IMG/VR virus record: IMGVR_UViG_3300006149_000031
From: a virus
Length of the DNA stretch: 42,085 nt
Direction: 5' to 3' (one strand)
In this document: one piece after another, positions 7,926-33,228 of the stretch
How the letters are laid out: every line of letters starts with the position of its first letter
Position numbering within the stretch: the first letter of the stretch is position 1
Notes under the pieces: model-generated
The model's database searches: none
The model's input: only the letters and a program-made list of their open reading frames with translations
Told to the model about the DNA's origin: nothing
Made by a program: the position numbers and the translations under genes

Positions 7926-8798
7926 TTAAAGGAGGTTTGTGGTGGAGGGTTCGGAGGCTGGGGCCGGTTCCGGCATCGGGGTCGGGTCTTGACGGTCTAA
8001 CGGGTAGTCATCTATGCCGGGGTCATCTTTCGATACAATTTCGCCGTCAATGACAACGCCGTCGTCGATTTTGACGACACGCCCCGTTTCCGCGGCATGG
8101 GAGACTTCAATGGCATTTGCCACTTCCACACTTTTCGGCATGTATTTGAGAACTTGCAGCAGAACCACCTTGCGGGCGTACATTTCGCGGTTTTTGTAGG
8201 AGTAATGCTTTTCTCCGACCTCGTTGTGTGCGTCTCTGTGGCGCCAGATGCGTTCCATGGGCCATGCCTCAATGACAGGGGTTTCCGCTCCGTTAACCCG
8301 GGCGCAGGCATAGGCCCATGTCATTTTGTCCTCATCCCCGTAATTGATGCCGGGGATGTGGCGGAGGATAGGATAGGCTCCAAGCTCAAATTGGAACTGG
8401 TCGCCCTCGTAAACTACCCCCGTCCAGGCGGTAGTCCTGCCCGTGTTGTTGAGCAGTCCTACAAGGCCCTGCCAGCCGGGAACAAAGGTGCACTTACCTT
8501 TGTAGGGGATAAGATATCCCTGCCCGGCTACTCCCGGCTCAAGCCCAAGCTGGGAGGCAATGAGCAAGCTGGAAAAGATACTTACAGCGGAACACCGCTG
8601 CAAGGCTGGGTTTTGTGAAAAGCAAGTTACCGCGAGACGAATCATACGGTCCGGGTTGAGATGGGCCGGCAGAGCGGCGGCAATGGAGGTTTTTGACCTG
8701 GTTAAAAAGCCAGCAAGCTCTTTCGGGGTTGACAGGGTAAGGGCCTGTTGTCCTTGTCTGTCCTCGTATTTTGGTTTATAAGGTTTTGCGTTACTCAT
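7926..8798 (-). CDS. recT: RecT-family single-strand annealing protein
   Basis: ..LPAHLNPDRMIRLAVTCFSQNPALQRCSAVSIFSSLLIASQLGLEPG..GYLIPYKGKCTFVPGWQGL.. matches the RecT core. Start taken at MSNAKPYKPK (8798); the ORF-track start at 8915 looks over-extended. Confidence 0.85.
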   Translation of the reverse strand: MSNAKPYKPKYEDRQGQQALTLSTPKELAGFLTRSKTSIAAALPAHLNPDRMIRLAVTCFSQNPALQRCSAVSIFSSLLIASQLGLEPGVAGQGYLIPYKGKCTFVPGWQGLVGLLNNTGRTTAWTGVVYEGDQFQFELGAYPILRHIPGINYGDEDKMTWAYACARVNGAETPVIEAWPMERIWRHRDAHNEVGEKHYSYKNREMYARKVVLLQVLKYMPKSVEVANAIEVSHAAETGRVVKIDDGVVIDGEIVSKDDPGIDDYPLDRQDPTPMPEPAPASEPSTTNLL

Positions 8799-8862
8799 AA
8801 TCTTTCGACGGATTGTTGTAACAGGCAGGGGATCGGTGGCCGCCGCCCCCCTGCCAACTGAA

Positions 8863-9300
8863 TCATCCTTCGCATTCCTCGCACTCGCATCCAACGATTC
8901 CAAGCATGGCGGCAATGGGATTCATCCTCTTTTTCATTTTCTCTTTTTGCTGTTGTTCAAGGAACAAACGAACACCTTCTCCCATAGTGTTTACATTGCA
9001 ATCAAAGCATTCGTTTGCTTTGAGAAGATAGCCGAAAGCGCTCGTCCACCCGTAAACTTTGAAATTCATTCTCTCAGACTGAAAAACGGAGCTGGAGGAT
9101 TCTAATATGTGCCGAGTTTTTCTTTCTTCCGGGACCTCCAAAAAGGCGGAAAAAATAGCGCGCCCATCGTAACGCTTAATCAAATCAACAAGGTTATCAA
9201 GCGCGGCGCTGATTTCTTCTTTTGTGGATGCAACAGTATCGCAGCAGCAGGCTTCGTCCGGCGTGCAGGACTGCGCATTCTTTTCTTCGGTATTGTCCAT
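8863..9300 (-). CDS. Hypothetical protein with Cys clusters at both termini
   Basis: 145 aa with CTPDEACCCD near the N-terminus and GCECEECEG at the C-terminus. Confidence 0.45.
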   Translation of the reverse strand: MDNTEEKNAQSCTPDEACCCDTVASTKEEISAALDNLVDLIKRYDGRAIFSAFLEVPEERKTRHILESSSSVFQSERMNFKVYGWTSAFGYLLKANECFDCNVNTMGEGVRLFLEQQQKEKMKKRMNPIAAMLGIVGCECEECEG

Positions 9301-11496: not shown

Positions 11497-12258
11497 ATGA
11501 CGACAACAAAAGAAGACGTAAAAAAATGGCTCAAGGTTATTGGTAGAGACAGAGAATGGCTCGCTAACCAATGTGGAGTTTCCAAGCGTCAGGTAGATAA
11601 TTGGCTTTCGTCATCCATCAATATTCCCGCAAAGGCTATCCTTGTTATTCAGCGTCTTATGAACGGAGAAGCCGAATCCTCTCCCCGCATCGTCATCGAC
11701 TTCACAGATGAAGAATGGGACATTATCTGTGAGGCCGCTAAAGCCCACAAAGAAACCTTCCTGGAATTCGTCAATACCGCCATTCAAAATGCCGCCAAAG
11801 AAAAAGAGGCAGCCCGCAAGAAGTTTACCCCGGTAGAAACATTCACAGCCCCTCCCTTGGAGGCTCAGGGACGAATCATCGGCAACATTGCCGCCGGCAA
11901 CCTGGCGGATGGAGACACCATCCCGCAGGACATCTGGTTATACCGCGAACTGGAAAAAGGGGAATACCTGCTACGCGTCAACGGTCACTCTATGGAACCC
12001 TCCATCCCGGACGGCTCCGTGGTCATCATGAAAAAATACACCATCCCTCCCATCCCCAAGTTAGGAACCATTGTTCAATACCACGATGAACGAGGGGTGA
12101 CGCTCAAAAAACTGGTTCGCAGGAAAAACCCGGAAACCGGAAAAATGGAATACGTATTACATCCACTCAATCCCGACTTCGGAGACATCGAACCCATGGA
12201 CGGCGGTAAAATCTCCGGCATCTATGTGGAAACGCTGGAACGCTGGAAGAAAGCTTGA
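11497..12258 (+). CDS. CI-type repressor with a C-terminal LexA/S24 autopeptidase domain
   Basis: N-terminal HTH (EWLANQCGVSKRQVDNWLSS). C-terminal GHSMEPSIPDGSVVIM (catalytic Ser) and VTLKKLV (Lys). Confidence 0.85.
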   Translation: MTTTKEDVKKWLKVIGRDREWLANQCGVSKRQVDNWLSSSINIPAKAILVIQRLMNGEAESSPRIVIDFTDEEWDIICEAAKAHKETFLEFVNTAIQNAAKEKEAARKKFTPVETFTAPPLEAQGRIIGNIAAGNLADGDTIPQDIWLYRELEKGEYLLRVNGHSMEPSIPDGSVVIMKKYTIPPIPKLGTIVQYHDERGVTLKKLVRRKNPETGKMEYVLHPLNPDFGDIEPMDGGKISGIYVETLERWKKA

Positions 12259-12438: not shown

Positions 12439-13248
12439 CTACCTAATGAGATCAAAATTATCTAGGTAATAGGTTGCGTCTTCTTGTTTATCTCGGTTAT
12501 AGATAAACAATCCTCTATTGTCTTGCTTGACCTTGATTGTCATTCCGGCGTCTGATGTGCTAATATATCCTCCGTGTTGCATTCTGTTAATATCCCCATT
12601 TTGCAAAATGAGAAAACGATTAGTCATATGCCCATCGCATGAATAGCGGAACACAATCACATAAAATATATTAGCGGTAGAGCTGTTGATAAAATTATTC
12701 GGTTTAATGAAAACAGAAAGCTTGTTTTCTTTGAAAAAAGAAGTTTTAACCTGAATAAAGAAAAATTTGTCTCCTTTTGACGCTGTAATATCAACTCCTT
12801 CATCAGCAGACATAATGCTGGCATTATAGCCACGGAATAATAATTCACTCACTACAGCAAATTCACCACCTTTACCGCAAAAGATCTTGTCGCAGGAAGT
12901 ATTGGAAAAGACAAGAGGGAGTTGTACTTGCTTATCTCCTCCGGGGTTTGGTTTCTTTTTACGGTCAGGTTCTGTTCTGATGACTTGAGTACCTTTTGGC
13001 TCCGGCTTGATCTTATAAAGCCCCTTTCTGGATCTCTTCGTCTTTGGATTGATAACCTTTGCATAAACCGGTGTCTTGCTTTTGACATTGGCTGCCAAAA
13101 AAGAATTAACCTTCTTCTTCATGTCCTCAACGGATGCCCCTTGAAATTCAGCGATATGCTGAACAATATGCTCCGCTATATCGTTTACGTGGGCTTCTTT
13201 CTTACCTAATGCCTTGAAAGAAATTGAAACAGCTTCTTTAATGTCCAT
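12439..13248 (-). CDS. HARE-HTH + PD-(D/E)XK (Hjc/Mrr-like) nuclease; AT-rich moron
   Basis: N-terminus MDIKEAVSISFKALGKKEAHVNDIAEHIVQ...VNSFLAANVKSKTPVYAKVINPKTKRSRKGLYKIK fits the HARE-HTH pattern. C-terminus GKGGEFAVVSELLFRGYNASIMSADEGVDITASKGDKFFFIQVKTS gives an E ... D ... Q-x-K nuclease core. Start at ATG 13248; the ORF-track TTG start at 13284 coincides with the -35 hexamer. GC is far below the flanks (spot counts of roughly 27-42 percent per 60 nt versus about 55 percent). Confidence 0.6.
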   Translation of the reverse strand: MDIKEAVSISFKALGKKEAHVNDIAEHIVQHIAEFQGASVEDMKKKVNSFLAANVKSKTPVYAKVINPKTKRSRKGLYKIKPEPKGTQVIRTEPDRKKKPNPGGDKQVQLPLVFSNTSCDKIFCGKGGEFAVVSELLFRGYNASIMSADEGVDITASKGDKFFFIQVKTSFFKENKLSVFIKPNNFINSSTANIFYVIVFRYSCDGHMTNRFLILQNGDINRMQHGGYISTSDAGMTIKVKQDNRGLFIYNRDKQEDATYYLDNFDLIR

Positions 13249-13255
13249 ATTCTCC

Positions 13256-13284
13256 CTTATATGTATCGGTTCTTTCCAAGTCAA
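13256..13284 (-). promoter_or_regulatory. Sigma70-like promoter TTGACT-N17-TATAAG, with the -10 ending 7 nt before ATG 13248
   Basis: Read directly on the minus strand. Suggests autonomous, lysogen-compatible expression of the nuclease gene. Confidence 0.5.
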
Positions 13285-13341: not shown

Positions 13342-14223
13342 CTACTTCGGAATCTTGAGTTGTATCTGCTTCTTGAAAAAGCTCTTAGCAAAAACTTCGG
13401 CTCCATTACTATTCCAGTCTTCTGCGTTGATCGCGTTCATATTCTTTTCTACCTCCACAACGCATGCATTCCTCTCCTGAAAATCCTTCCAAATCTGATC
13501 TGCCGTAACAACATCTGTTCCCCACAAATTGTTGGCGTTCTTGTAAATCTGGCGGCCTACATCTCTATCTCCGTCACCGATGGTCTCCATCAGGCGATTC
13601 CCAAGCATATAAGCCCGGTCATGTTCGCTAGCCAGATCAAGGAGGGAAACAGCATCTTCGCCCCAACGTACGCGGAATCTCTCTTTCGCCCCTTCATCTC
13701 CGGTAGCAAACAGCACAAGATCCATCAAGACCATCTCCTTGGTATTCGATCCTTTCCTTGCTCTGTAACATTCCATCTTCTCTTCCTGCTTTGCTCTCGC
13801 CTGCTCCTGTTGCATTCGCTCATGGGTGGCCACCTTCTCCAGCCTTTCATTCTCTCTATATTTGACAACAGCAAAAGCGGCGGAAGCAATTACCAGAAGC
13901 ACAAACAGGACTTTAACCGGACCCTTCACCTTCTTCCAGATAATGGACCATGGCGCCATAATGGACAAAAAAAGAACAATGGTTCCGGCATTCACCCACA
14001 TCCAGACCTCTTTCTCCAAATGCACCCGGAAAATGGGATTGTAAAGCAGGGCAATAGCGGCGGCTGACACGCTTCCAAAACAAACTCCCTTCTTCTGTTC
14101 CTGTGCAAATACAAAGACAGCATAAGCACAGACAGCTAAACGCAGGAACATATAATACCCGTAAGGCATCGGCAACAGCGCCACCCCCAGAAGAACGCAA
14201 ACAGCAATCAGCAAGCCTTTCAT
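13342..14223 (-). CDS. Membrane protein: DUF6804-like 4-TM N-domain + coiled coil + copy of the giant protein's N-terminal domain
   Basis: Start at MKGLLIAVCVLLGVALLPMPYGYYMFLRLAVCAYAV..LYNPIFRVHL.. (ATG 14223; the ORF-track start at 14415 runs into the giant gene). The C-terminal ..LDLASEHDRAYMLGNRLMETIGDGDRDVGRQIYKNANNLWGTDVVTADQIWKDFQ.. is identical to aa 145-199 of the giant protein. Confidence 0.65.
   Translation of the reverse strand: MKGLLIAVCVLLGVALLPMPYGYYMFLRLAVCAYAVFVFAQEQKKGVCFGSVSAAAIALLYNPIFRVHLEKEVWMWVNAGTIVLFLSIMAPWSIIWKKVKGPVKVLFVLLVIASAAFAVVKYRENERLEKVATHERMQQEQARAKQEEKMECYRARKGSNTKEMVLMDLVLFATGDEGAKERFRVRWGEDAVSLLDLASEHDRAYMLGNRLMETIGDGDRDVGRQIYKNANNLWGTDVVTADQIWKDFQERNACVVEVEKNMNAINAEDWNSNGAEVFAKSFFKKQIQLKIPK
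13478..13642. repeat. 165-bp direct repeat, copy A (163/165 identical to 23511..23675)
   Basis: Manual alignment finds two mismatches (13498 a vs g; 13618 c vs t). The flanks are homologous but strongly diverged. Confidence 0.9.
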
Positions 14224-14231
14224 GAGTCCAC

Positions 14232-14260
14232 ACCATAATGGCGCACAAAATGAAACACAA
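14232..14260 (-). promoter_or_regulatory. Weak sigma70-like promoter candidate TTGTGT-N17-TATGGT, 8 nt before ATG 14223
   Basis: Read directly. The hexamers are weaker than at the other three sites. Confidence 0.3.
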
Positions 14261-14278
14261 GCTTGCAATATTTTGGAA

Positions 14279-17200
14279 TCACTCCGCCAGCTTAAACCCA
14301 GGCTTGGACAAATTCGCCACCCCAGCCACGGACAAGAGCCAGGACGCCACGGAATCAGCCGCCTTGCTGCGGCTCCCGGCGCCCGCTCCGGCCACGTAAG
14401 CGGCCGCCTTGGCATCCAGCAGAATCAATTCCGCCCAATCGGCAAACGTCATCTCCTTCTCCCCGGTGACGGCTTTCCACGTATTTTTGGCCGCCCGGTA
14501 AATCGCGGAATAATCAATCACTCCGGACGCGGTGCCTGCGTAAATACGCTGTCCAGTCGCCTGCTTGTAGCCAAACTCCACCGCCGCACCCAGCATCGGC
14601 ACCCCGCCAATCATGGCAACAGGAGCCCCCAGCATGGCGCCGAACCATCCGCCGTTCTTCTCCCACTCGTCCTCGTCATCCAGCAGGGCGTGCCACAGGG
14701 CAATCACCGTCTGTTCGGCAACGGACATCATTCCATATAAAGCAAGAGCCTGCCCCCAATTCCCGGAGCTCACATGAGAAACGATCATCCCCACCTTATT
14801 CAACACCTCGGAACTCATAAAACAGGCCATCTTCGCAAACAGGCCCGTGGAAGCCCCCAGCATGCTCTTCTGGCTCTGCGTCAGCGGCTGGGCCACCAGC
14901 TCCAGCGCCCGGGTCACGCTCTGCATGCACAGGGCGTGCATCTCATCATCCGTCATCGGGACGCCGGTCCTTTTTCCTGCCTCTTCCAGCTCGGCCCACT
15001 TCGCGTTATACAGGGCGGCCATGGACACGGCATTGCTCCACACGTCCATCTTCTCAATAGCCCTCATGCCGGCCATGGAAAACCTGATCGCTCCGGTGTA
15101 ATTCTGATCGGAAGCATACCCCATCAGCTGGCTCACCAGCTCCGCCTGAGCGTCATTGGTCCTCGCCCGGAAAGCCTCCGTCTTCATCACCTCAAACACC
15201 CCCATGCGTCCGGTCATGGACATCGTCTGCCCCAGGTGCAGCAGGAAACTCCCCATGCCAACCTCCCCGGCAAACATCCCGTGCATCAGGCCGCTGGTCT
15301 GCTTGAGCATCGTCAGCACGTTCCAGGCCAGCAGGGCCACCGCCTTGGCGCTCTGGAAGCGGCTTGTCGCCTGGGCTCCGGCCAGCAGGGCGCCCCCCTC
15401 CATCACTCCGGCCCCGTCGATCACATCCAGCCAGTGCCGCAGCGAATCAATCCCGTGGCGCCCCATGTGCTCCTTCAGGGACGCTGCCGCCTCCTTGTCC
15501 GCCAGAATGCCGCGCCAGCGGGCAGTAATATCCGCCGTGCAAATATAATTCTCCACCTCGGCGCTCGCCGCCTGGAACACGGCCTCGCAATCCATATTCC
15601 AGGCCAGGTGCAAATTGTGCTTCCGCCTGGGAATCAGCATCCCGTACTTCGCCCCGCCGGCCACGGCATTCGTCTGTTCCCCGAAAGACGCCTTCGTATC
15701 AAGCTTGTGGTCCGCCCGGAACACGGCCCGGAAATAATTCTCCACCGCGGGGAAGGGAACCCCCTCACGCTCCTCATACACACGGGCCAGCAGCTTTCCC
15801 TGCCGGTTCATCAGCTCCCGCAGGCCGTAGCCGAACGCCAGCCCTTCGGCGCCCACAAACTCGCGCAGGCGGGCAACCTCCGCTTCTCCAATGCCTTCAT
15901 TCCGCATCGTCTCCACGTACTCGGCCTGCTCGTAAAGCAAAATGGCATACATCGCCTGGGCGCGGGAAACCTTCAACGTCTCGCCCTTCCTGCCCGGGCG
16001 CACCACTTCCTCCTTCGCCGTAATATTCTTCCTCCTTCTGGCCCGTCCGTCTCCGGCCTTCACCAATTCATCCAGCTCGGCAAGCTGCCGGCGCATCTCC
16101 GGAATAAGCGCTTCCGGCACGGACGCCTTATCGTCGGAAAGCCCCCGGTCATTGTACTCCTTCCTGATTGCCTTGCGTCGTTCCTCCCTCTCCTCAAAAG
16201 ACAACCCCACCCACTCGCGGGCCTCGGCGATCCTCACGGTGCGCTCCACCTTCACCAGCGGATTCAGCACTACGCCGGAATCCCCTGTCTTCTTGAAATC
16301 GGAAAGAACCCTTGCCACATCTTTGGTGCGCTGAACGCCAAAACACCGCTTAACCAGGGCCGTCACCTCCCGGTCCCGGGCGTGCTTCATATTCCTCAAC
16401 GCCACATTCGCCTCGGCAATCGCAGTAACCTCGGCATGCGCCAGACCGCGCAGGGCGGGAATCTTCTTCCATCCATTCAACAGCTGGGAATAAGACTGCA
16501 AACCGTACTTCAGGTACTTGGCCGCCTTCGTTCTCGTAGACGCCTTCGCATCCTCTTCCGCGTCACGTCCTCCCTGGGGAGTGGCCTGCCCAAGCCCTTC
16601 CACAATCTTCTCGGCCTTGAACTTCGTCCGGCGCCTCTCCTCGTCCAACCGGGTGGACCAGGCCGTCCGTCCCGTCGTGATAAACAGGGCAAGGGCGCGC
16701 GCGCAGGCGCGCGTCTGCTCCAGTCCCATCCCGGCCAGATATCCGAACGTGTGCCAATCCTTCAATTCCAGCTCGGCCGCACCCCGTTCCTCTTCGGTGG
16801 ACTGGTTGCTGGAAAGCACGCCCTCCAGCTCCAGCATTCGCTTCTCCTTCGCCTCCTGGTCCGTATTCATCATGGCGACTATCCCGTGCAAATGCCTGTA
16901 ATCCTCCGCGCTCAACTTGCCCTTGTTAAACTTCCCGCTGGCCTTCTTCGTCGGCTGCACGGCCTTGATGCGGGCAACCATCTCCGCCCGCATCTGGTCG
17001 ACGGCATATCGGTCTGCCTGTTCCAGCGTGCGGGCCAGCAGCTTGTCAATCACGGCATCCATGCGCTCGCTGGTATCGTCCATCAGCGTCTCCTTCTTCA
17101 GCTCATCGGAAAGCCATGCCTGACCGTCCTCCAGACGGGTGGCAAGATTCTCGGCAGCTCTCATGTAAGGGTAAAGGCCAAACCTGTACCCCTCCGGCAG

Positions 17201-20200
17201 CGTCTTGTAAATGGAAGCCACCACGGCCATGACCCTTCCGAACGCCTCCGCGCCGTCTCCCTGCTTCACATCGTTGGCCGCGCAAACCCGGCGCCATGTC
17301 TCCAACGCTTTTGCCGTCTGGCTGCGCAGCACCTCCAAACGGTTCTTCTGCGCCTCCCGCTCCAGCGTCACCCAGACACTTTCTCTCGTGGCAAGAGAGA
17401 AACTCGCCGTCGGATCCTCATAATCCGCCCACGCTCCCCCGGTGGACTCGTCCGCAAACGCCGTAATCTTAATATCGTTGCCGTCAAAAATCACGTAATT
17501 ATACGTCTGCTTCTCCTCCGCCTTCCAGCGGGAAAAACCGTCTGCGTACCTGATGCCCCTCACTCCATGCCTTAACAGAAACTCGCTCGCCTCTCTGGGG
17601 CTTCCCAAGGCATCCTCCAACGAGCGGTAAATCTTGCCCCCCATCCAATACCCATTTTCCGGATCCTTGTCGTTGAACAAAGAATACGCTTCTTCCTTGC
17701 CCTCATCCAGAAGCCAATCTCCTATTCTGGATGTTGTAGATGAGCCGTACCCTTTATCCCAAAACAGCAGCTCCCCTCCTTCCATGAAGTCCAAATAATC
17801 CTCCACATTCAGCTCCACGCGGTAATTGGAAGGCATGCCCGTCCTGACCTCTATCTCGTCCAGATGATCAAGCAGAGAAAGTAGAAAGCCTTCCAGCTGG
17901 ACCATTTTCTCCCGCTCCTGGGGATACTCCTCCGCGTGTTTCCTGTTGATTTCAATCTCCTCCATCACCTCTCTGGCGATGTCTGAAACAGTCATGCTTC
18001 CTTTGGAGGCATCAACCAAATCGCCAAGAACAGACCAGGCGATATCTGACGCGTCCTCCTTGGCCTCCGGCAGGGCATCCTTCGGCAAAAAACTATTTAC
18101 CAGGGATCGTTGCATCACTTCTATAACGCCAGTCTCCACCTCCCGGAACTTCCATGTCGTCTTATCCTGCGCGAACTGGTTCATATAACTCCGGTTCACC
18201 TCCGGATTTTCCGCAAAATAAAGTCCCCAGCCATACGCCTGCGCTCCTTCCCCCTTGCCCATGAACGCCGTATCAAACTTGCGAAAACTGTGAGGGGAAG
18301 CATGCAGGGCAGTAATGGAGAACGTCACCCCCGGTTCCGTAATCACAGCGTTGCCCGCCTCAAAATGGCCGTCCCGGAACAAGCCCTGTTCCTGTGCCGA
18401 AACAATGGAAAACGTAATGTCCGGATTCTTCGGATCAAACGTCCCCCGGTTGTTCGTGGAGGACTTGATCTGATTCGGCTCAAAGGCAATGTACTCCGTC
18501 CATTTACCCAGTACAGCAATGAGTCCATCATGTCCTCTTTCTTGAGCACTATCGGCTATCTGGGCCGCTCCTGTCGCATACGGCCGGAATATTCCAAACC
18601 TGTCATCTTCATGAAAATTCCCATCCCAAATATTTAAATAATCGCCTATCTCTTCAGCAGACTTGTAATCATTAAAAATAAACGGATTCCTGATATTCAG
18701 AAACAGAGCCAGCTTCTTGTTCCCGTACGGAGTATTCTCCATATTGGTAAAATAAAATCCTCTACCCCATATACCATAATCAGTAGCAGATCCAATCTTG
18801 GCCTTGTCAAACACCGTGAAATCACCGTATGTCCCATGATACACCACCCTCGGCTCCCCGTTCTCGTCCACCACCTTGGAAGCATTCTGCGGATCCTTCT
18901 CCCAATCGCCAAACCAATTCTTAAACGCCGCCGTGCGCACGGCAAGCCACTGGTCTTCCGTCAGATTCGTTTCCTTCCCGTTCGGGGCCTTCATGAACGT
19001 GCCCGCAGCCACAGCTTCCTTCTTGATTGCCTCTTTTTCCAGAGATAGGGAAAACGTCGCCGGAACAATAGCCCCGTCGTCAAACCGGCATTCCACTTCA
19101 TTCACGTTGACAACATGCGCCCCTTGTGGTAAGGAAAAACCATCTCCCCCGCCAGCGGATTGGGACGGCAGAGCGGCCTTGCTTGCCGATCCTGGACCTA
19201 GGCGCGCGGTGCCGCTATTCGCGTTTGCAGGTTGTCGCTCTGCAAGGGGGAGCTTCTTCCCCAGCGGCTTCTTGCCCTGCCGCACTGGATAAGCCGAGAC
19301 AATGGAATAAAACCCGTCCTTCCGGTCCAATTGCAGCAGCATCCATGAAGAAGGCTGCCTTCCCTTAACCAGCAGCTCACGCCCGGGCGCCACCTCGTAA
19401 AGCTCGCTCACATTCGCCAGAATGGAACTGATATAGCGTTCCGGGGAACGGTCCTTCCAGAAGGAAAACCCGCGGGAAGCCAGGATATGGGTCAGTCCAT
19501 AGCCGCGATGCTCCCCGACATCGGAACCCACCAGCAGCCGCACCGGCATGGCTGGCTGCCTCTTGCGGCGCGGAATCACAAACCAGTCAGGACTTCCGTC
19601 TTCCCGGGTGACGAACGTCTCCGGAGCCAGGACAGTTCCGGAACTATCCATGGCAACCACGGAAAACGTCGCCCCGGAAACGGGCACACGCTCGAACGGA
19701 TTCACTTCACTCGTGCCGTCCCAGGCAAGGGCGCGGTCATGAAGGTGCAGCGCCGGGTCATGGGACTGCCATGCCCCCTTGGCTCTTTCCAAATCATGAA
19801 TGGCCGCATTCAAATCTGCGTCCGTCTCCAGGCGGATGCCCATCCTGCCCGCCAAATCCTTCCGCCGGCTGATGCCTCTGGACTTCTTCAGAAGGGACAG
19901 GCGTTCGGCAATCAGGGAAATCCCCCGGGCCGCAAAGCGGGCCACCTTCTCGCAATCCTCCTGCCAGGACGTATCGTTGCCGAACAAATCAAACGCCTCT
20001 CCCTCCCGGGACTTCTCCGCAGCCACCCGGTCCGCCTCCTTCACATAGGCCGCCACGTAATCCCACGGCTTCCCCTTCTCGCGCAGCTGCAGGGCAAGCA
20101 TCTGTCCCGCCTCCGTTGAAGACAGGCGGCATACCTTCCACGCCTCGTTATCCGTAATCACCCCGTTCTTCAGGCGGGTAAACACCTCATCCCCGGCCAG

Positions 20201-23200
20201 GGTGGCAATATCCCAGCCCATCACATTGGCGGAACCGGGGCGCAAATACCCCTGCGCCTCCATCTCGTCCCGGCCCATATTGGAATTCCGGACAAAAAAA
20301 GCCACCTCCAGCGCGGACGCCTGACCGTCCAGCATATTCTGCCCGACGTCGTGCATCTTCGCCCAAGTGGCGTCATGCGCATCATCTTCTTCATACACGT
20401 AAGCCGGAATAAACTCCACCCCGTCGCGCACGGCCAAATCAAACCGGTGGCGTCCGGTAATCACATGCAGGGCTCCATCCCTGCGCCGCCACACGGAAAT
20501 GGGCTGGGCGTCTTCCCGGAACCATCCCTGAAGCTCGCGCCCCTTCACGGCTCCGCGTTCATTATGATCTCCCTGCTTGAACTGCTCCACATCCGGCGCC
20601 AGGGCCAGGGAATCCACCCGCACCTGGGCAAACACGCAATCCGGCGCCACCCGCACAAACGCGTGATCGCGGAACTCCGCGCCGGCCTCTTCATCGTGTT
20701 CGGCCTCTTCCCCCACCCCCTCCAGGGAGCCGCCGGCATCCTCCACCAGCGGAGCGGGGGATGCCGAATTCCCGGCAATGCCGGTCACGGGATCAGTCTC
20801 ATCCTCCTCTTCCGCGGTCTCTTCCACATCCTCCGCGGCATCCATCCGCGCCATGGACTCTTCCAGTGCCTCCAGCTCGCCCAGCGTCATCGTGGCATCC
20901 CCCGGAGCCCTGCGGGAAGCAAGGTCCGCGTGCACCATCTCCACATCCAGTTTCTGCGCGGCATCCATCCGCGCCTGGCGGAAAACGCTCTCCGTACTCA
21001 CGCCCACGGCCTGCAGGGCGTCTGCCAGGCCTCCGTGCTCTTCCATAAACTTCTTCCCCTCGTCCGTCGCGGCAAACTCGTTCCATTGCTCGCCCATGCG
21101 TATGATGCGGGCGGAATCCTCCAGATTCTTCAGGGCGAACTCCGCGGTGTCCTTCACCCACTGTGGCACGGGCAGGCTCTCAATATCCGCCAGGGAGGAA
21201 GACAGGGACAGGTTGGAAAAACTTTCCACCACGTCCCTGGCATCATGCGCCGGGCCCTCATACGTCCCCAGACTCACGCCGTACCTTCCCAACACGGCGT
21301 CCGCCGCCTGCAAATGCTCCCACAAATCCTGCCAATCCTTCCCGGTCAGGTTCATGTAATGAACCAGGGCGGACTCCTGCACATCCTCCATCACGTTGGC
21401 CGTCGTGGCATGGCCTCCTGCGTAAAGCAGCAGGGAACTCCCAGGATCGGTCGCCATCGTAAACCGGTGGGCGAAGCTGGCCGCCGCCGTGCCGTTCCTG
21501 ATCTCCTCGGATCTCCCCCTCGTAATCTCTCCGGAACGCACTGCATGATCAAGACGCCTCTCAAAAGCCGCCGCCAAATCGGCAATGGAACCAAGCTGAA
21601 CCTTCCCCATCACTTCGGCATCCGTCCTGCTTCTGGCTTCCTGGACGGACACGCCCTCTTCCCGGACAATCGCGTCAATCCTCGCCTGGGCTCGCGCGGC
21701 CACATCCATCAACCCCGGGACGGTCATCCCTCCGGTTTCGGCGGCCGCCTTCCGGTACTCCGCAGGCGCTTCCTCGGACAACATATCCAGCGTCTCAATA
21801 AAATCCATCTTCCCGGCTTCCGAAATCGCGGCATTCCCCAGCACGGCATCCTGCATCACGCGGACGCCATTCAAATAAGCCCCCTGCAGCACTACCTGAA
21901 CCAGGGCGTCCGTCTGCTCCTCGTTCATCTCCACGCTCCTGTCTTCCTCCATCTTCACGCCGTTCACTACAGCGCCCTCCCGCAGGCTCACCTCGTACCT
22001 GTCCGTTCCTTCCAGCTTGCGGATACGGCCAATGTTGGCCTTCTCCAGCACCTTGTCCAGAGCGCCGGACATCTGGTACAGCCGGGCCTCCTGCCGGTCC
22101 GCCAGCTCGGCGCCGGCCTTCCGCGCCCGTTCGGCGGCTCCTTCTGGATCCTTCAATACATCAGTCTCGAAATACTTCTGGGCCAGCGCAGCCTTGTGCT
22201 CCGCCGTGGAAAAAGACGCCATCTCTTCGGCATGCTTCTTCGTATATCCGGCCAGCTGGGCCCGCTGCGCATCCGTCACGAACGCCGCCACTTCCTGCTT
22301 CATCCTCGGAGCGTGGCCGGCAGCCATGGCCGCCACAAACAACGCGCATCCGCCGGACTGCTCCACATCCCCCATCGCCTGAAGCACGGGGCCCACCACC
22401 TCGAAATCCTTCGGCTTCACCTCCATTCCCGTCATCCCGGACAACTTCCGGGCCGTCCACTCGAACAACTCCCCGGCCAGAGGTTCCGCCGCCATCTCTT
22501 CCACGTAGGCAAACGCCGGGGTGGAAAGCATCTTGCCGGTTCTCGTCCCGGCAAAAAACGTGCGCCCCGGCACCTTCGCGGCCAGTCTCGCCAGGGCGCC
22601 GGTTCCCGTCCTGGTCATCAGCTTGTTGATGGCCCCCATGCGCCCGAACACGGAAAACACCCCAAACCCCTTTTCCTCCACCGTATTCCGCAGCCCGTTG
22701 ATCGTCACGTCCACCAGGGAATCCCCGTTGCGGGAGGCGGCATTCCCGGCGTGCCCCATATCCCCGGCCAGCGCCAGGGCCCAGCCGCCGGGAGCCATGT
22801 AGGAAAGGCTCTGCCCGGTGATATTCCCGGCTCCGTTAATCGCCTTGACGTACCAGGACGCATCAGGGCTCGTGCCCCGCATCCGCTGTCCGAACTCGTG
22901 CATCACATCCTGCATCGTATTCAGCGCTTCGCGTCTTTGCTCGTAGCGGTCGAAGAGCTGCCTTTGTCCGTCAAACGTATCCTTCACCCCCTGCAGGGGA
23001 GCAATATTATTGGAATACCACTCTTCCATTCCGCTCATGCCGGGAATGCCCCTCACCGCCTGAACCGCCTTCACGCCCAGGCTCTCCGCGCCGCGCGCCG
23101 TGTCGGCAAAACTTCTATACAAATTGCGCCAGAAAGCAGCGGAATCCGTCTGGCTCTCCTGAACCTTCCGGTCAATCGCGGTCATCAGCAACATCAACGC

Positions 23201-24106
23201 CTGCTGGTCCAGCACCTCATTCCCGTTGACATTCACTGTCAGCAGATCGGCCATGTCCAGCGCGTCGGAGCGCCAGACATCCTCAAACCCGCGCCTCTCG
23301 GCAAAAGCATACGCCCGCCGCGCCCTCATGATGGAATCGGCAGCCTTCTGCGGACTCTCGGCATACTTCAGCAAATCGGCAGGACACGCGTCCCAGCTGC
23401 CTTCCTTCCCGGCTACGCAATCCACTATCCGGCGGGAAATCTCCTCCTGTTCAGTCTGAACCCTCTTCAGATTTTCATTATAGGCGTCCAGCGTCTTCTG
23501 ATGCCTCCCTTGAAAATCCTTCCAAATCTGGTCTGCCGTAACAACATCTGTTCCCCACAAATTGTTGGCGTTCTTGTAAATCTGGCGGCCTACATCTCTA
23601 TCTCCGTCACCGATGGTCTCCATCAGGCGATTCCCAAGCATATAAGCTCGGTCATGTTCGCTAGCCAGATCAAGGCGGTTCAGAGCATCTTGGCCCCAGA
23701 GTTCCGCAGCTTTCTTTCTGCCCTCTCCATCCATGGCCCCGGCCCGCAGCACATCCATCAGCCGGGCCTGCTTATCCTTTCTGCGCCTCTCTTCTCGCTC
23801 TGCTGCGCCGTACATCATCATAGCCCCCTGGTCATGCAGGGATTCAGGATCCGTCAGCTGCGGACGGAACTCCGTTTCGGAAGGATCTTCCGGAGCAGGA
23901 AAAGGGGAAGGAGTGGTTTCCATCACGTCGCTTCCATTCAAAAGATTAATGTCGGCTGCTGCTTGCTCCTGTCCTGTTCCCGGTTCCATCTCCGGCAGGT
24001 GAAATCCGGCGGCAGCCTCGCCCTCCGGCAGCGGCAGGGAGGAAAAAGAAAGATCCAGAGGCATATCCGCAGCGTCGGCCCCGTCAAAGGAAAAATTGTC
24101 GTTCAT
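14279..24106 (-). CDS. Giant (3275 aa) polyvalent virion/ejection protein
   Basis: Single uninterrupted ORF at the end of the internal-protein gene block. It contains a ParB-like module, two ART-like modules and a possible RNase-like module. The C-terminal third is hydrophobic and Gly/Ala-rich (..GGWFGAMLGAPVAMIGGVPMLGAAVEFG..), as expected for an ejection/channel protein. Confidence 0.8.
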   Translation of the reverse strand: MNDNFSFDGADAADMPLDLSFSSLPLPEGEAAAGFHLPEMEPGTGQEQAAADINLLNGSDVMETTPSPFPAPEDPSETEFRPQLTDPESLHDQGAMMMYGAAEREERRRKDKQARLMDVLRAGAMDGEGRKKAAELWGQDALNRLDLASEHDRAYMLGNRLMETIGDGDRDVGRQIYKNANNLWGTDVVTADQIWKDFQGRHQKTLDAYNENLKRVQTEQEEISRRIVDCVAGKEGSWDACPADLLKYAESPQKAADSIMRARRAYAFAERRGFEDVWRSDALDMADLLTVNVNGNEVLDQQALMLLMTAIDRKVQESQTDSAAFWRNLYRSFADTARGAESLGVKAVQAVRGIPGMSGMEEWYSNNIAPLQGVKDTFDGQRQLFDRYEQRREALNTMQDVMHEFGQRMRGTSPDASWYVKAINGAGNITGQSLSYMAPGGWALALAGDMGHAGNAASRNGDSLVDVTINGLRNTVEEKGFGVFSVFGRMGAINKLMTRTGTGALARLAAKVPGRTFFAGTRTGKMLSTPAFAYVEEMAAEPLAGELFEWTARKLSGMTGMEVKPKDFEVVGPVLQAMGDVEQSGGCALFVAAMAAGHAPRMKQEVAAFVTDAQRAQLAGYTKKHAEEMASFSTAEHKAALAQKYFETDVLKDPEGAAERARKAGAELADRQEARLYQMSGALDKVLEKANIGRIRKLEGTDRYEVSLREGAVVNGVKMEEDRSVEMNEEQTDALVQVVLQGAYLNGVRVMQDAVLGNAAISEAGKMDFIETLDMLSEEAPAEYRKAAAETGGMTVPGLMDVAARAQARIDAIVREEGVSVQEARSRTDAEVMGKVQLGSIADLAAAFERRLDHAVRSGEITRGRSEEIRNGTAAASFAHRFTMATDPGSSLLLYAGGHATTANVMEDVQESALVHYMNLTGKDWQDLWEHLQAADAVLGRYGVSLGTYEGPAHDARDVVESFSNLSLSSSLADIESLPVPQWVKDTAEFALKNLEDSARIIRMGEQWNEFAATDEGKKFMEEHGGLADALQAVGVSTESVFRQARMDAAQKLDVEMVHADLASRRAPGDATMTLGELEALEESMARMDAAEDVEETAEEEDETDPVTGIAGNSASPAPLVEDAGGSLEGVGEEAEHDEEAGAEFRDHAFVRVAPDCVFAQVRVDSLALAPDVEQFKQGDHNERGAVKGRELQGWFREDAQPISVWRRRDGALHVITGRHRFDLAVRDGVEFIPAYVYEEDDAHDATWAKMHDVGQNMLDGQASALEVAFFVRNSNMGRDEMEAQGYLRPGSANVMGWDIATLAGDEVFTRLKNGVITDNEAWKVCRLSSTEAGQMLALQLREKGKPWDYVAAYVKEADRVAAEKSREGEAFDLFGNDTSWQEDCEKVARFAARGISLIAERLSLLKKSRGISRRKDLAGRMGIRLETDADLNAAIHDLERAKGAWQSHDPALHLHDRALAWDGTSEVNPFERVPVSGATFSVVAMDSSGTVLAPETFVTREDGSPDWFVIPRRKRQPAMPVRLLVGSDVGEHRGYGLTHILASRGFSFWKDRSPERYISSILANVSELYEVAPGRELLVKGRQPSSWMLLQLDRKDGFYSIVSAYPVRQGKKPLGKKLPLAERQPANANSGTARLGPGSASKAALPSQSAGGGDGFSLPQGAHVVNVNEVECRFDDGAIVPATFSLSLEKEAIKKEAVAAGTFMKAPNGKETNLTEDQWLAVRTAAFKNWFGDWEKDPQNASKVVDENGEPRVVYHGTYGDFTVFDKAKIGSATDYGIWGRGFYFTNMENTPYGNKKLALFLNIRNPFIFNDYKSAEEIGDYLNIWDGNFHEDDRFGIFRPYATGAAQIADSAQERGHDGLIAVLGKWTEYIAFEPNQIKSSTNNRGTFDPKNPDITFSIVSAQEQGLFRDGHFEAGNAVITEPGVTFSITALHASPHSFRKFDTAFMGKGEGAQAYGWGLYFAENPEVNRSYMNQFAQDKTTWKFREVETGVIEVMQRSLVNSFLPKDALPEAKEDASDIAWSVLGDLVDASKGSMTVSDIAREVMEEIEINRKHAEEYPQEREKMVQLEGFLLSLLDHLDEIEVRTGMPSNYRVELNVEDYLDFMEGGELLFWDKGYGSSTTSRIGDWLLDEGKEEAYSLFNDKDPENGYWMGGKIYRSLEDALGSPREASEFLLRHGVRGIRYADGFSRWKAEEKQTYNYVIFDGNDIKITAFADESTGGAWADYEDPTASFSLATRESVWVTLEREAQKNRLEVLRSQTAKALETWRRVCAANDVKQGDGAEAFGRVMAVVASIYKTLPEGYRFGLYPYMRAAENLATRLEDGQAWLSDELKKETLMDDTSERMDAVIDKLLARTLEQADRYAVDQMRAEMVARIKAVQPTKKASGKFNKGKLSAEDYRHLHGIVAMMNTDQEAKEKRMLELEGVLSSNQSTEEERGAAELELKDWHTFGYLAGMGLEQTRACARALALFITTGRTAWSTRLDEERRRTKFKAEKIVEGLGQATPQGGRDAEEDAKASTRTKAAKYLKYGLQSYSQLLNGWKKIPALRGLAHAEVTAIAEANVALRNMKHARDREVTALVKRCFGVQRTKDVARVLSDFKKTGDSGVVLNPLVKVERTVRIAEAREWVGLSFEEREERRKAIRKEYNDRGLSDDKASVPEALIPEMRRQLAELDELVKAGDGRARRRKNITAKEEVVRPGRKGETLKVSRAQAMYAILLYEQAEYVETMRNEGIGEAEVARLREFVGAEGLAFGYGLRELMNRQGKLLARVYEEREGVPFPAVENYFRAVFRADHKLDTKASFGEQTNAVAGGAKYGMLIPRRKHNLHLAWNMDCEAVFQAASAEVENYICTADITARWRGILADKEAAASLKEHMGRHGIDSLRHWLDVIDGAGVMEGGALLAGAQATSRFQSAKAVALLAWNVLTMLKQTSGLMHGMFAGEVGMGSFLLHLGQTMSMTGRMGVFEVMKTEAFRARTNDAQAELVSQLMGYASDQNYTGAIRFSMAGMRAIEKMDVWSNAVSMAALYNAKWAELEEAGKRTGVPMTDDEMHALCMQSVTRALELVAQPLTQSQKSMLGASTGLFAKMACFMSSEVLNKVGMIVSHVSSGNWGQALALYGMMSVAEQTVIALWHALLDDEDEWEKNGGWFGAMLGAPVAMIGGVPMLGAAVEFGYKQATGQRIYAGTASGVIDYSAIYRAAKNTWKAVTGEKEMTFADWAELILLDAKAAAYVAGAGAGSRSKAADSVASWLLSVAGVANLSKPGFKLAE
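17459..18331 (-). other. Second, diverged module with parallel motif layout (aa ~1926-2216)
   Basis: TALHASPHSFRKFDTAFMGKGEGAQAYGWGLYFAEN ... GVRGIRYADGFSR..TYNYVIFDGNDIKITAF has the same order of H / aromatic-YF / terminal strand motifs as the preceding module, with a large insert. Confidence 0.35.
18407..18964 (-). other. ADP-ribosyltransferase-like module (H-Y-E type, polyvalent-protein family), aa ~1715-1900
   Basis: AAFKNWFGDWEKD..KVVDENGEPRVVYHGTYGDFTVFD (H), GIWGRGFYFTN (Y), KWTEYIAFEPNQIKSSTNNRGTFDPKNPDITFSI (E). Confidence 0.65.
19277..19669 (-). other. Unassigned module (aa ~1480-1610) with a GEHRGYGLTHILASRG motif; possible PBECR-type RNase
   Basis: The G.G..HI...R motif is reminiscent of phage Barnase-EndoU-ColE5/D-RelE-like domains found in polyvalent proteins. 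Assignment from memory only. Confidence 0.25.
20267..20659 (-). other. ParB/Srx-fold nuclease-like domain of the giant protein (aa ~1150-1280)
   Basis: ..ISVWRRRDGALHVITGRHRFDLAVRDGVEFIPAYVY.. resembles the ParB motif (DG..y.vidGhHRl.Aa...G...iP). Confidence 0.6.
23511..23675. repeat. 165-bp direct repeat, copy B (inside the giant gene, aa 145-199)
   Basis: See copy A. Confidence 0.9.
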
Positions 24107-24135: not shown

Positions 24136-26493
24136 TTAAAATGATTTGTAATACTTGCTTACGCCGTTGACCCAATGCTTATTCAATCCGCGCGGATCAT
24201 TCCCGGCTCCTGCCGGAGCGTACTTCCCTCCAATGGCGGCAATCGTCGTCAACCCCTGGTCCAGATAATGCTTCCTCAACAGGCGGGCGGCGTAATTAAT
24301 GCTCTCTTCCACGGAGGAAAAAGTGCGCGGTCCCCCTCCATTCGGGCTGATGCCCATGGCGTTATTCTTGCGCAGGAAAGCGGCGCTCGTTCCCTTGCCG
24401 GTCTCGTGCATGGCAATAGCCATCAACAGCTTCGGATCCACGCCATACTTCCTTCCCGCATCATAAAAAGCCTGGCTGTACTGTCCCAGCCCCCCCAGCT
24501 TGGCGGCAGGCACCCTGGACTCTCCGGCATCCTGCTCCCAATCCTGGCTTCCCGGATATTCTCTCTTGAAAAACTCCCTCATTTCCGGGCTGGCAGGGGA
24601 AATCGTCACATTCGTATCCATCTTGGAAGAAAACGTCATCCGCAGCTTGCTGGCGCCGGACAGGGTAAGCTGGGGGGAACTCCCCCTGGTGTAGCCCACC
24701 ACGGGAAGGGGCTTCCCGCGGCGGGAAGAAGAGGAAGAAGGAACCAGGGCGGCCAGTCCGGAAACGTCGTCGCCAAACCGCTGCCTCATGCTCTCCGGCA
24801 GAAGAATGCCGGCGGGCGCGTTCGTATTCACGGTATCTACGGAAACCATGGCAGGGAACGTAAACGGCTTGCGCAACATATCCTTCCGGCGCAGCGTCTG
24901 CTTCTCCCCTTCACTCAATAATTTGGGGCCAGCATTAAACCGTTCACTATCCCTATCTCTCCATTTCTCGCTTGCAGTCTGCTGGTATTCATCCATCAAT
25001 CTCCCACGACTCGGAATAACTAAATCATTGCGACCTGTTACTTTTCTTAAAATAGTCTGAAGCATATCCTCCTGCAAAACATAGGAAGGCTCCTTCCCGT
25101 TCCCCTGCACCTCTCCATCAAACCAGGCCTCAAAATCATCACGAACGGCAATCTCGGTCTTGGCGGCAAGATTCTTTTGCAGGTTCTCAATCTTCTCCTT
25201 CTTGAACCTCTTGATCCATGTATCTTCACTGTCTTTGGGTGTGTCGGACCCTTTGGAGGAATCAGCGTAGAGTTGCCAGGCATTCTTCGCCTCGGCATCA
25301 AGAGTGCCAATGACGTTATTATAATCCGCCTGACGGTACAACGGAGCCCCATCCATCTCCTTCATGCGCTCGGAAACATTCAACATCTTGTACTTTTCCT
25401 TGCGCTTGGCCCACTTATCCATGCGGTTCAAAACATCCTTCTGGAACTCGGCTGACTTCGCGTAACGCTTGCACAGAAGGATCACATTTTCCTTCTTGCT
25501 CGCCAAATCCGGCCCTTCTTCTCCAGCCCTCACCATATCCGCAACCCGGTAAATGAAAGAATCAATCTGCGGAGCGCAGGCGCTGTAATCCCCGTCGCGC
25601 TCATAAACCGCATGAAACCCCAATTCTTCCTGATAGACGGGACCGGACAGCAAAGCATTCGTCACGGCCTGCCTGTCGTTCTTTGACTTAGGACGGGAAG
25701 CCGTCTGCTCGACTACCTCCGTAAGCCTGTTGTCGTCCTGACGCCGCAAAGAACGCATCATCTCATCCTGTTCGGAGGCGGAAAAATACCCGTCCAGCTC
25801 CCCGCGGTTAATCATCTCGGCGGCAAGATCCGGGTTAGTCGCGGCCAGGTTCTCAAAATGATGGCGGGAAGCCTTCTTCCTCCCTCTCAATAAACGCAGC
25901 TCACCTTCGTCACGGGAAATCGTGCCGGAAGCTACGGCGTCATCAACAGACCTCTCGTAACCGCCCCAATCCTGCTTCTCCTCGGCCAGCTTCAAACTCG
26001 TATCGAAAGCCTGTCTGGCAACGCCCAGCTGATGTTTGGCAGCCAGCCCCCAATAACGTTCCGGCAGGCTTGACCTCACGGAAGCCCTGACAGCCTCCGC
26101 CTTCATGGCGCTCTCCGGGTGGAAAAAACTGCCACCCAGCGCGTCAATCTTCTGGCCGAACTCGTAAGCCAAATCTTTCAGCTTCCCCTGCCGGATGGAA
26201 CCGTCCTTCTCAAAAACGCTCTCCTTCGTGCCCGGCGCGAAAGCCAGCATCCTGGAAAACTTCGCGTCGGACTCGTCCCGGATGCGTCGCAGCTCCACCT
26301 CCTGCCGCTGCATCTCCCCGAAATCGGAAATCCTGGCAAACGCCTCCGCGCTCCCCTGAACCGCCTCTTCGGCCTTCTGGACGGACGCGCCCAGCACCTG
26401 GCCCTGATCGCCATTGGCGGCCCGCGCCGCGACACCGGGATCAGCCTTGGCCGTCTGCAGGGACGGCCCGCCGTATAAAGAAAACTCGCTCAT
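24136..26493 (-). CDS. Internal virion protein with a C-terminal lytic transglycosylase (SLT) domain
   Basis: 785 aa. C-terminal ..YGVDPKLLMAIAMHETGKGTSAAF..NNAMGI.. carries the SLT catalytic E-[ST]-G motif. Its position is analogous to T7 gp16. Confidence 0.75.
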   Translation of the reverse strand: MSEFSLYGGPSLQTAKADPGVAARAANGDQGQVLGASVQKAEEAVQGSAEAFARISDFGEMQRQEVELRRIRDESDAKFSRMLAFAPGTKESVFEKDGSIRQGKLKDLAYEFGQKIDALGGSFFHPESAMKAEAVRASVRSSLPERYWGLAAKHQLGVARQAFDTSLKLAEEKQDWGGYERSVDDAVASGTISRDEGELRLLRGRKKASRHHFENLAATNPDLAAEMINRGELDGYFSASEQDEMMRSLRRQDDNRLTEVVEQTASRPKSKNDRQAVTNALLSGPVYQEELGFHAVYERDGDYSACAPQIDSFIYRVADMVRAGEEGPDLASKKENVILLCKRYAKSAEFQKDVLNRMDKWAKRKEKYKMLNVSERMKEMDGAPLYRQADYNNVIGTLDAEAKNAWQLYADSSKGSDTPKDSEDTWIKRFKKEKIENLQKNLAAKTEIAVRDDFEAWFDGEVQGNGKEPSYVLQEDMLQTILRKVTGRNDLVIPSRGRLMDEYQQTASEKWRDRDSERFNAGPKLLSEGEKQTLRRKDMLRKPFTFPAMVSVDTVNTNAPAGILLPESMRQRFGDDVSGLAALVPSSSSSRRGKPLPVVGYTRGSSPQLTLSGASKLRMTFSSKMDTNVTISPASPEMREFFKREYPGSQDWEQDAGESRVPAAKLGGLGQYSQAFYDAGRKYGVDPKLLMAIAMHETGKGTSAAFLRKNNAMGISPNGGGPRTFSSVEESINYAARLLRKHYLDQGLTTIAAIGGKYAPAGAGNDPRGLNKHWVNGVSKYYKSF

Positions 26494-33222: not shown

Positions 33223-33228
33223 GAACAG

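Follow-up and report, generated by a model that had tools for sequence, protein, structure and literature searches.

Why do two otherwise unrelated genes of one phage, 10 kb apart, have 165 bp of almost identical coding sequence in common? The question is raised by a gut phage, the IMG/VR virus record IMGVR_UViG_3300006149_000031, whose whole stretch of 42,085 nucleotides is called the window in the following. One copy of the repeat lies in the 5' part of the gene for a giant polyvalent protein and the other in the 3' part of the gene for a small membrane protein with a DUF6804 domain. Our comparison with related contigs makes it probable that the repeat is a conversion tract between two paralogous domain copies evolving in concert, and that it is also the direct-repeat substrate for an in-frame deletion of 10,033 bp. 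Repeat-mediated conversion and deletion are known in kind; new is this variant in undescribed phages, likely of Akkermansia, that encode giant polyvalent proteins. A single short coding repeat would have two roles here, as a record of ongoing conversion in several lineages and as the source of fixed, in-frame end points for a deletion that removes a quarter of the genome, the whole effector cargo included.

Results and Discussion

The two copies of the repeat

Both copies are found on the minus strand, in direct orientation and in a common reading frame, with 10033 bp from start to start. Aligned in register, positions 13478–13642 and 23511–23675 are identical at 163 of 165 sites, and the longest perfect run measures 116 nt (13499–13614). 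The two mismatches, at 13498/23531 (A/G) and 13615/23648 (C/T), fall on third codon positions and are synonymous, and all 55 encoded residues are identical. This confirms the near-identical direct repeat reported in an initial annotation of the window. The same annotation had described homologous but diverged flanks, as seen on the gene-5' side, where the adjoining 100 nt show an in-register identity of 55/100; on the gene-3' side the identity of 30/100 is at the random level and the sequences are unrelated. The repeat is part of a wider homologous segment of about 260 nt with 85% identity (repeat family D1). The window itself is a circular assembly, positions 1–77 being equal to 42009–42085, with a unit length of 42008 bp.

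As independent assemblies of other samples (L045, L046, L047, IMG/VR 3300045988_184047 and L048, a 30-kb contig with 71x coverage) also yielded the membrane gene with this converted patch and these flanks, the repeat in the window is not an assembly chimera.

Probable gene conversion between the copies

To compare the repeat across genomes we aligned 14 copies site by site and drew up a broader table of 59 occurrences. The patch of the membrane gene carries a giant-gene allele while its flanks stay of the membrane-gene type. Within one genome, small and giant gene agree at 163/165 sites in IMG/VR 3300045988_184047 and at 190/192 in IMG/VR 3300029121_000169; the latter has a different allele, 87% identical to that of the window, and a tract extending about 23 nt further on the 5' side and about 6 nt further on the 3' side. 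On the ENA scaffold L056, which starts inside the patch of the giant gene, the first 55 nt match the scaffold's own membrane-gene patch at 55/55 sites, including a lineage-specific TTEQ variant. Between the alleles typed on one contig the patch agrees at 143–145/165 sites (13% different), and against those of a further group, lineage 3, at 105–111/165 (33–36% different). The alleles of type 1 and type 2 differ at about 21 of 165 bases, mostly synonymously, and at only 3 of 55 residues, so that the identity within a genome cannot result from constraint on protein or nucleotides. From the choice between recent conversion and strong constraint offered by the initial annotation, conversion remains, with synonymous sites shared within a genome, and constraint falls with the difference of 13–36% between lineages. 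Its statement that this is not a simple old duplication stands, since the copies match within a genome and each lineage has its own allele.

The flanks tell which gene was the donor. Between the window and L037, L038 and L042 the membrane-gene flanks are identical at 147/150 and 119/129 sites, while the patch between them agrees at 108–111/165; across lineages these flanks are 92–98% identical and the patch ranges from 64% to 100%. In the giant genes, patch and flanks diverge together between lineages, and for this reason we regard the patch as native to the giant gene and the giant gene as the donor. Every patch in a membrane or hybrid gene except that of L056 has a giant-gene counterpart at 155–165/165 somewhere in the set; for L056, whose own giant N-terminus is cut off, the best giant match reaches 143/165.

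Lineage 3 appears to follow the same pattern. Its giant proteins are only about 25% identical to that of the window over most of their length, and its patch alleles occur in the membrane genes of L006, L010, L037, L038 and L042; in the last four of these contigs the giant C-termini are 99% identical to lineage-3 giants. Even the sub-alleles track each other, L037 matching the type of L019 and L026 and L006 that of L018. A diverged patch in relatives had been named beforehand as a sign of a chimera in the window. The patch of these five contigs is indeed diverged, but it is the allele of their own giant lineage, which supports conversion over a chimera.

Close relatives are polymorphic at the same two sites in both paralogues, which indicates continuing exchange: the small copy of L048 equals the giant copy of the window at 165/165 sites, and the small copy of L047 matches the giant copy of L001 at 164/165. 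The differing end points of the tracts (165 nt in the window, 192 nt in 3300029121_000169) further imply that conversion occurred more than once. From all these alignments, repeated gene conversion between the copies, directed from the giant to the small gene, appears strongly supported.

L037 and L038 form a case of their own. Their giant C-termini are 99.9% identical and their membrane-gene flanks are the same, and their patches carry the sub-alleles EEDRSYMLGMWLEEVLGDGDRD and EEERSYMLGMRLAEVLGDGDSD, respectively, which points to conversion or exchange having taken place very recently in one of the two.

A near-identical tract, a higher identity within than between genomes and independent events are all found at this locus, as in concerted evolution by gene conversion, which is known for the bacterial tufA/tufB genes and the rRNA operons. 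Both of these resemble the present case in a near-identical tract that includes synonymous sites, in the closeness of copies within a genome and in recurring events with varied end points. Unlike in tufA/tufB, it is here one domain common to two otherwise unrelated proteins, in a phage of 42 kb, that is converted, and the conversion is apparently directional from giant to small.

A different cause of the identity would be constraint at the nucleotide level, by a cis-acting DNA site or a structured RNA, or a repeat pair of a diversity-generating retroelement. Folded as RNA, the patch is predicted to be slightly more stable than shuffled sequences (z = -1.96), and one copy lies near a protein C-terminus like the variable repeats of such elements. 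However, between genomes the divergence of the patch equals or exceeds that of its flanks (87%, 64–67%), no Rfam family matched it, no reverse transcriptase is found among those window proteins that were scanned against Pfam or PHROGs, and the mismatches are not specific for adenine (on the coding strand C and A in the giant gene, T and G in the small one). We take these explanations as refuted and their probability as negligible.

In the model that we propose, a helical domain of about 90 aa exists in two paralogous copies, as an N-terminal module of the giant protein and as the C-terminal module of the DUF6804 protein, and homologous recombination would repeatedly overwrite the core of the membrane copy with the giant allele of the same genome. 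The enzymes may be the RecT, RecE-like and RusA functions of the phage, possibly together with host functions; the initial annotation had already pointed to RecT and an exonuclease for the deletion, and both of them as well as a RusA-like resolvase are identified by PHROG. Given the direct, in-frame identity with its perfect run, a crossover or single-strand annealing between the copies could then remove the intervening 10,033 bp and would fuse codons 1–199 of the giant gene to the final 44 of the membrane gene.

The hybrid gene and its probable origin by deletion

The predicted deletion removes nearly the whole giant gene together with the transmembrane part of the membrane gene and leaves an in-frame open reading frame (ORF) of 243 aa, composed of giant residues 1–199 and the 44-aa tail of the membrane protein. 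Such hybrids were present among the matches of the protein search (P0001, P0002), and the virtual deletion product is colinear with L040 (2645 nt, 97.5%), L002 (675 nt, 99.3%) and L003 (464 nt, 99.6%). The exact 243-aa hybrid (P0045) occurs on 14 public contigs from NCBI, JGI, ENA and Logan, including the Logan contigs L074 and L076, a MEGAHIT contig, SPAdes contigs, the contig L073 of a metagenome-assembled genome (MAG) and the 62-kb scaffold L069. Logan contigs are built at k=31 and leave repeats unresolved, and a second arrangement in the same sample should therefore have broken them. The junction is free of N in L002, L040 and L069–L076. A parallel hybrid of 259 aa (P0014, P0035 and relatives) is found in lineage 3 on at least 10 contigs. 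Relatives with a single copy of the repeat and both outer flanks do exist, and the predicted junction is real and common in nature. The loss of about 10.0 kb with formation of a short hybrid gene, as foreseen in the initial annotation, is matched down to the exact junction and the 243-aa protein in many public assemblies, and the comparison of related genomes proposed there gave relatives with the 10-kb segment and others without it, among the latter L040, L002, L003 and L069–L076.

An assembly artefact, either a chimera or a 10-kb loop skipped at a collapsed repeat, would also produce the repeat or the hybrid junction. Among the hybrid contigs, L003 has a coverage of only 1.8x and L040 of 3.6x and several are short; moreover the patch is where L034 and L036 begin and L066 stops, and scaffold L004 has a run of N inside it. 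On the other side, besides the five independent assemblies of the converted membrane gene named above, the hybrid is seen in k=31 Logan, MEGAHIT and SPAdes contigs, in a JGI scaffold and in an NCBI MAG, and it sits inside a chromosomal island with bacterial flanks, where no 10-kb loop is expected, with junctions free of N. An artefact is thus largely refuted, and we give it only a very small probability. The run of N is also the reason why we rejected L004 as an example of a separate, stand-alone domain gene following the membrane gene.

The opposite history would start from the short gene. Here the gene consisting of N-leader, domain and 44-aa tail would be ancestral, and a cassette with the giant body, the DUF6804 gene and the second domain copy would have been inserted by Campbell-type recombination. 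It agrees with this that 14 contigs have the short ORF intact and with one and the same sequence, that the 44-aa tail is conserved across all forms, and that short genes of both type 1 and type 3 are carried by the same 7-kb island with common chromosomal flanks, as expected of a long-lived element. But giants with the N-terminal domain occur in many lineages, some of them without a DUF6804 gene or second copy (L013, L031), which makes an old fusion probable; the membrane gene keeps its own diverged 5' part of the domain, as expected of an old paralogue and not of a recent insertion scar; insertion requires a circular 10-kb donor, while deletion is a single intramolecular event; and both hybrids are 97–99% identical to the matching full phages on either side of the junction. 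Because of the first three of these points we prefer deletion as the more likely origin of the short form, and an ancestral short gene appears improbable to us.

The genomic setting of the hybrid complicates this picture. The long hybrid contigs (62 kb, 30.9 kb and 17.4 kb) turned out to be bacterial chromosome with a prophage-derived island of about 7 kb, in the order integrase, 203-aa protein, 239-aa protein, lysin, short hybrid, S24 repressor and 108-aa protein. The integrase of the island is 94% identical to that of the window at the aa level and inverted relative to the arrangement there, and the two small proteins are 31–34% identical to the 206- and 231-aa proteins of the window. Two kinds of left flank are found, either FGE-sulfatase/trypsin or ProRS, and with both of them the island exists in a type-1 and a lineage-3 version; in the latter, two ORFs of 530 and 247 aa take the place of the single lysin gene. 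In the type-1 island only a block of about 3 kb (window positions 26011–23501, 13665–13335 and 12428–12334) is 96–98% identical to the window and the rest is far more diverged, which looks like a recent exchange with a window-type phage. NODE_780 (L040 = L070, 30,889 bp), whose length would suit a complete deletion genome, was rejected as such because its gene map is that of bacterial chromosome with the 7-kb island; the agreement in length is accidental.

Several of these facts weigh against the deletion and conversion history favoured here. Finding the long hybrid contigs on the chromosome, and the island in two allelic versions at the same flanks, could mean that the short gene is old and swaps alleles with phages instead of arising by repeated deletion. 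Which of the full and short forms came first cannot be read from the structures; the hybrids are known from assembled contigs, with L002, L003 and L055 being short or of low coverage; and scaffolding across a repeat, as in L004, can mislead. In lineage 3, the fourth lineage, allele matching is inferred across contigs and not within a single one. We nevertheless retain conversion together with deletion as the most probable account.

Two further claims of the initial annotation are not supported. A viable deletion phage of about 32 kb is not borne out, the long hybrid contigs being chromosome with the island; only in L072, a gap-rich scaffold, does the hybrid stand beside window-like phage early genes. 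A built-in switch between forms with and without the cargo is not indicated either. The boundaries of the deleted segment are simply those of the 165-bp coding homology, the only integrase lies 11 kb away beside a putative attP, and for a single genome the deletion is one-way; as there is neither a dedicated recombinase nor a specific site and the segment, once excised, could not return, nothing points to a programmed reversible switch.

The shared domain and its pairing with DUF6804

The shared domain is a conserved N-terminal module (about aa 100–230) of giant proteins of 3000–3700 aa, which we found in 26 IMG/VR contigs and several metagenome contigs. Its family is small: a profile search of 1.84 billion representative proteins gave 15 clusters, all belonging to this phage group. 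Neither the domain nor the 281-aa neighbour nor most of the giant protein received a name from Pfam, PHROGs or PADLOC, and the domain had no PDB sequence match below E = 0.09. An AF2 model built from a 12-sequence alignment shows five helices at low confidence (pLDDT 67), and Foldseek searches with it against PDB and BFVD gave no fold match (best E about 1).

A DUF6804 gene lies directly downstream of the giant gene in 13 of 13 IMG/VR loci, all retrieved with a DUF6804 query. The C-terminal extension of the DUF6804 protein varies between none (95 aa), a Cys-rich module (235–253 aa) and the copy of the N-terminal domain (293 aa), and in the examples seen the domain copy is present only where the giant protein has the domain as well. 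L066/L067 and L059 have another N-terminal module on the giant protein, and their DUF6804 protein is without the domain or has the Cys-rich module. Conversely, giants with the domain exist without a DUF6804 gene or a second copy in L013 and L031. We also considered that the extension always mirrors the N-terminus of the giant protein, and rejected this since the Cys-rich extension of L059 is unlike its giant. As a side observation, the extensions are interchangeable among L059, L060, L063, L066, L067 and L068 (about 10001–10750 each) with the Cys-rich module resembling a zinc ribbon, and the giants have at least two alternative N-terminal modules, one of which, of the P0019/L067/L059 type, ends in AVW(K/Q)DF.

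This pairing allows a different weighting, in which selection keeps the alleles matched, either because the copies interact or because both contact one allele-specific partner, for instance as a tether or self-specific decoy, and conversion merely restores the match. The copies do match wherever both could be typed, in three allele classes on the same contig and by inference in lineage 3; L037 and L038 differ in their patch sub-alleles with near-identical giant C-termini and membrane-gene flanks; and both the gene order and the joint occurrence of the domain described above fit a functional pair. Yet frequent neutral conversion at high identity yields the same pattern, fully typed genomes are few, the domain model is of low confidence and gives no fold match, and the giants with the domain that have no DUF6804 partner show that pairing is not essential. 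We regard selected matching as a possible but doubtful explanation.

A role of the domain in docking or self-association would agree with the matched alleles, with the close pairing of the genes and with the fact that the N-terminal module outlasts the cargo. In that case a copy anchored in the membrane and matched in its allele might be a tether or a decoy; the pattern would be no different under neutral and frequent conversion. Going further, the membrane protein might carry an allele-matched copy of a docking or oligomerisation domain of the giant protein that is kept by selection, as a self-specific tether or decoy, for example in superinfection exclusion or in a checkpoint of assembly or ejection, and the free 243–259-aa hybrid of the island might be a domesticated gene for allele-specific protection. 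On that reading the repeat would underlie a module for self-recognition and would at the same time be the hinge between genomes with and without the cargo; this elaborate version is unlikely. Whatever its role, the small helical domain represents a conserved core that outlives the loss of the cargo. In nature the giant polyvalent protein is not obligatory, and a functional link between giant proteins and DUF6804 membrane proteins is suggested which can be tested.

The giant polyvalent protein and its membrane neighbour

The giant gene follows the tail genes and the gene of a 785-aa glucosaminidase protein in a podovirus-like late operon. In T7-like phages the internal virion proteins, which are ejected, are encoded at the corresponding position of the operon. 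Judged by gene position, the virion probably contains the giant protein and delivers it to the host cell along with the DNA.

The only domain of the giant protein that can be named by Pfam is ART-PolyVal, an ADP-ribosyltransferase (PF18760, E=8.7e-25). The protein also matches PHROG 30335 and 21376; its relatives measure 3000–3700 aa. A large multidomain protein with an effector domain among virion genes is what characterizes the polyvalent proteins, and by its sequence the giant ORF belongs to them, with one effector domain that can be named (Iyer et al. 2017, PMC5512222). Proteins of this class are predicted to be packaged and to enter the host together with the DNA. The giant protein shares with them ART-PolyVal and the position among virion genes; the passages of that paper considered here make no mention of the N-terminal domain, of a copy on a neighbouring membrane protein or of cargo loss mediated by a repeat.

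Two other systems invite comparison. When Rhs orphans are activated in Salmonella, the main toxin gene of an rhs/cdi locus recombines with a downstream orphan module by short homology. As here, direct coding repeats are present in a very large effector gene and in a downstream fragment, and deletion gives an in-frame fusion with a new C-terminus. In contrast to rhs/cdi, the fusion in our phages discards the cargo, the shared stretch is at the N-terminal end of the giant protein, and we see no sign of a logic of immunity genes. Deletion between short direct repeats and mosaicism by homologous recombination also belong to classical phage genetics, and the present locus has in common with those deletions the phage annealing and exonuclease functions, the intragenomic repeats and the loss of non-essential DNA. 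It differs from them in that the repeat is made and renewed by conversion of coding domains and that the end points preserve the ORF.

Two observations concern the giant gene itself. A 30-nt motif occurs three times inside it (20823–20852, 20946–20975 and 22098–22127, 70–87% identity) and appears to match repeated ...ARMDAA... peptide motifs in the translation. On the 65-kb contig L051 (10001–13589) the lineage-3 giant gene is shortened to 474 aa with a different C-terminus, the next genes being one of 274 aa, DnaB and one of the MarR type; this represents a second form of cargo absence that is independent of the repeat.

The N-terminal DUF6804 region of the membrane protein holds several hydrophobic segments and matches Pfam PF20619 with E=2.2e-19 (69.8 bits against a cut-off of 27, residues 68–153 of the long ORF). 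The long ORF spans 13342..14415, and we set the start to the ATG at 14223 as in the database proteins P0016–P0018. A function of the DUF6804 protein as holin was considered and is less likely, given an Amidase_3 endolysin and small ORFs elsewhere, at 39–41 kb. This endolysin gene (39116–39658), with the small ORFs adjoining it, lies far from the giant/DUF6804 pair, and the lysis cassette is probably located there.

Genome context and host

The window represents a temperate phage, which is podovirus-like according to its portal with about 27% identity to the portals of Burkholderia phage BcepC6B and Pelagibacter phage HTVC010P, and it encodes a major head protein, tail proteins, an integrase and an S24 repressor. 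Megablast of an 11.5-kb region against GenBank phages gave no match, scans of GTDB representative genomes with the domain and with the portal found no relative, and literature searches on DUF6804, on polyvalent proteins in Akkermansia prophages and on Akkermansia phage genomes returned nothing relevant. Two cluster members are named 'uncultured Akkermansia sp.' in NCBI, and the G+C content is about 55%, which we take to fit Akkermansia; on these two grounds only, Akkermansia is the likely host. We have therewith identified a family of podovirus-like temperate phages, likely of Akkermansia, and a related chromosomal island. The features discussed are collected in Table 1.

Table 1: Features of the window and of related contigs; positions refer to the window unless a contig is named.
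Feature	Position or contigs	Strand	Remarks
RusA-like resolvase	5350..5769		PHROG
RecE-like exonuclease pieces	6299..6937 and 6934..7920	-	PHROG
RecT-like annealing protein	7926..8915	-	PHROG
S24/LexA-type repressor	11497..12258	+	convergent with the late operon ending in the membrane gene
Terminator-like hairpin	12395–12420
Membrane protein gene	13342..14223	-	293 aa; DUF6804, charged linker, C-terminal copy of the N-domain, 44-aa tail
Wider domain stretch, membrane gene	13468..13727	-	pairs with 23501–23760, 85% overall; diverged outside the 165-bp core
Repeat copy A	13478..13642	-	codons 195–249 of the 293-aa DUF6804 membrane protein; putative conversion recipient
Segment lost by recombination between the copies	13643..23675 (equivalently 13478–23510)		10,033 bp; product a 31,975-bp circle
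Giant polyvalent protein gene	14279..24106	-	3275 aa; acidic leader, N-domain, ART-PolyVal aa 1747–1890, hydrophobic C-terminal region
Wider domain stretch, giant gene	23501..23760	-	pairs with 13468–13727; codes for the conserved N-terminal helical domain (about aa 115–200)
Repeat copy B	23511..23675	-	codons 145–199 of the giant protein (LDLASEHDRAYMLGNRLMETIGDGDRDVGRQIYKNANNLWGTDVVTADQIWKDFQ); putative conversion donor allele
Upstream neighbour of the giant gene	24136..26493	-	785 aa, C-terminal glucosaminidase domain; in all deletion-type contigs the hybrid gene comes directly after it
Deletion-form contigs, type 1	L040/L070, L002, L003, L069–L076		one repeat copy joined to the outer flanks, colinear on both sides
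Deletion-form contigs, lineage 3	L039, L043, L044, L052–L055, L077–L081
Island of about 7 kb	L069 5113–12283; also L071, L077, L078		bacterial genes on both sides

A few further observations were made outside the repeat. Between the membrane gene and the terminator, the segment 12429–13334 has a low G+C content (42–45%) and an ORF of 269–281 aa (12439..13284), which gave no Pfam or PADLOC match and only a weak one to PHROG 5018. The segment is missing in L001, L002, L040 and others and present in L035, L036, L041, L045 and L048, and it looks like an insertion/deletion polymorphism of the moron type. The integrase gene (35028–36167, plus strand) is placed between the gene of the major head protein and a protease/scaffold-like gene of the minus-strand late operon, and just upstream of it a 32-nt imperfect inverted repeat (34910–34941 / 34964–34995) may be attP or an operator. 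Finally, a 33-nt motif occurs four times (1080–1112, 1628–1660, 28118–28150 and 33192–33224; consensus on the minus, coding strand GCAGGGATAGAAACATTGATTCTCGCCAACTTG), the best two copies being 97% identical. All four copies are located at gene boundaries or gene starts, and the motif could be a phage-specific promoter or another regulatory site.

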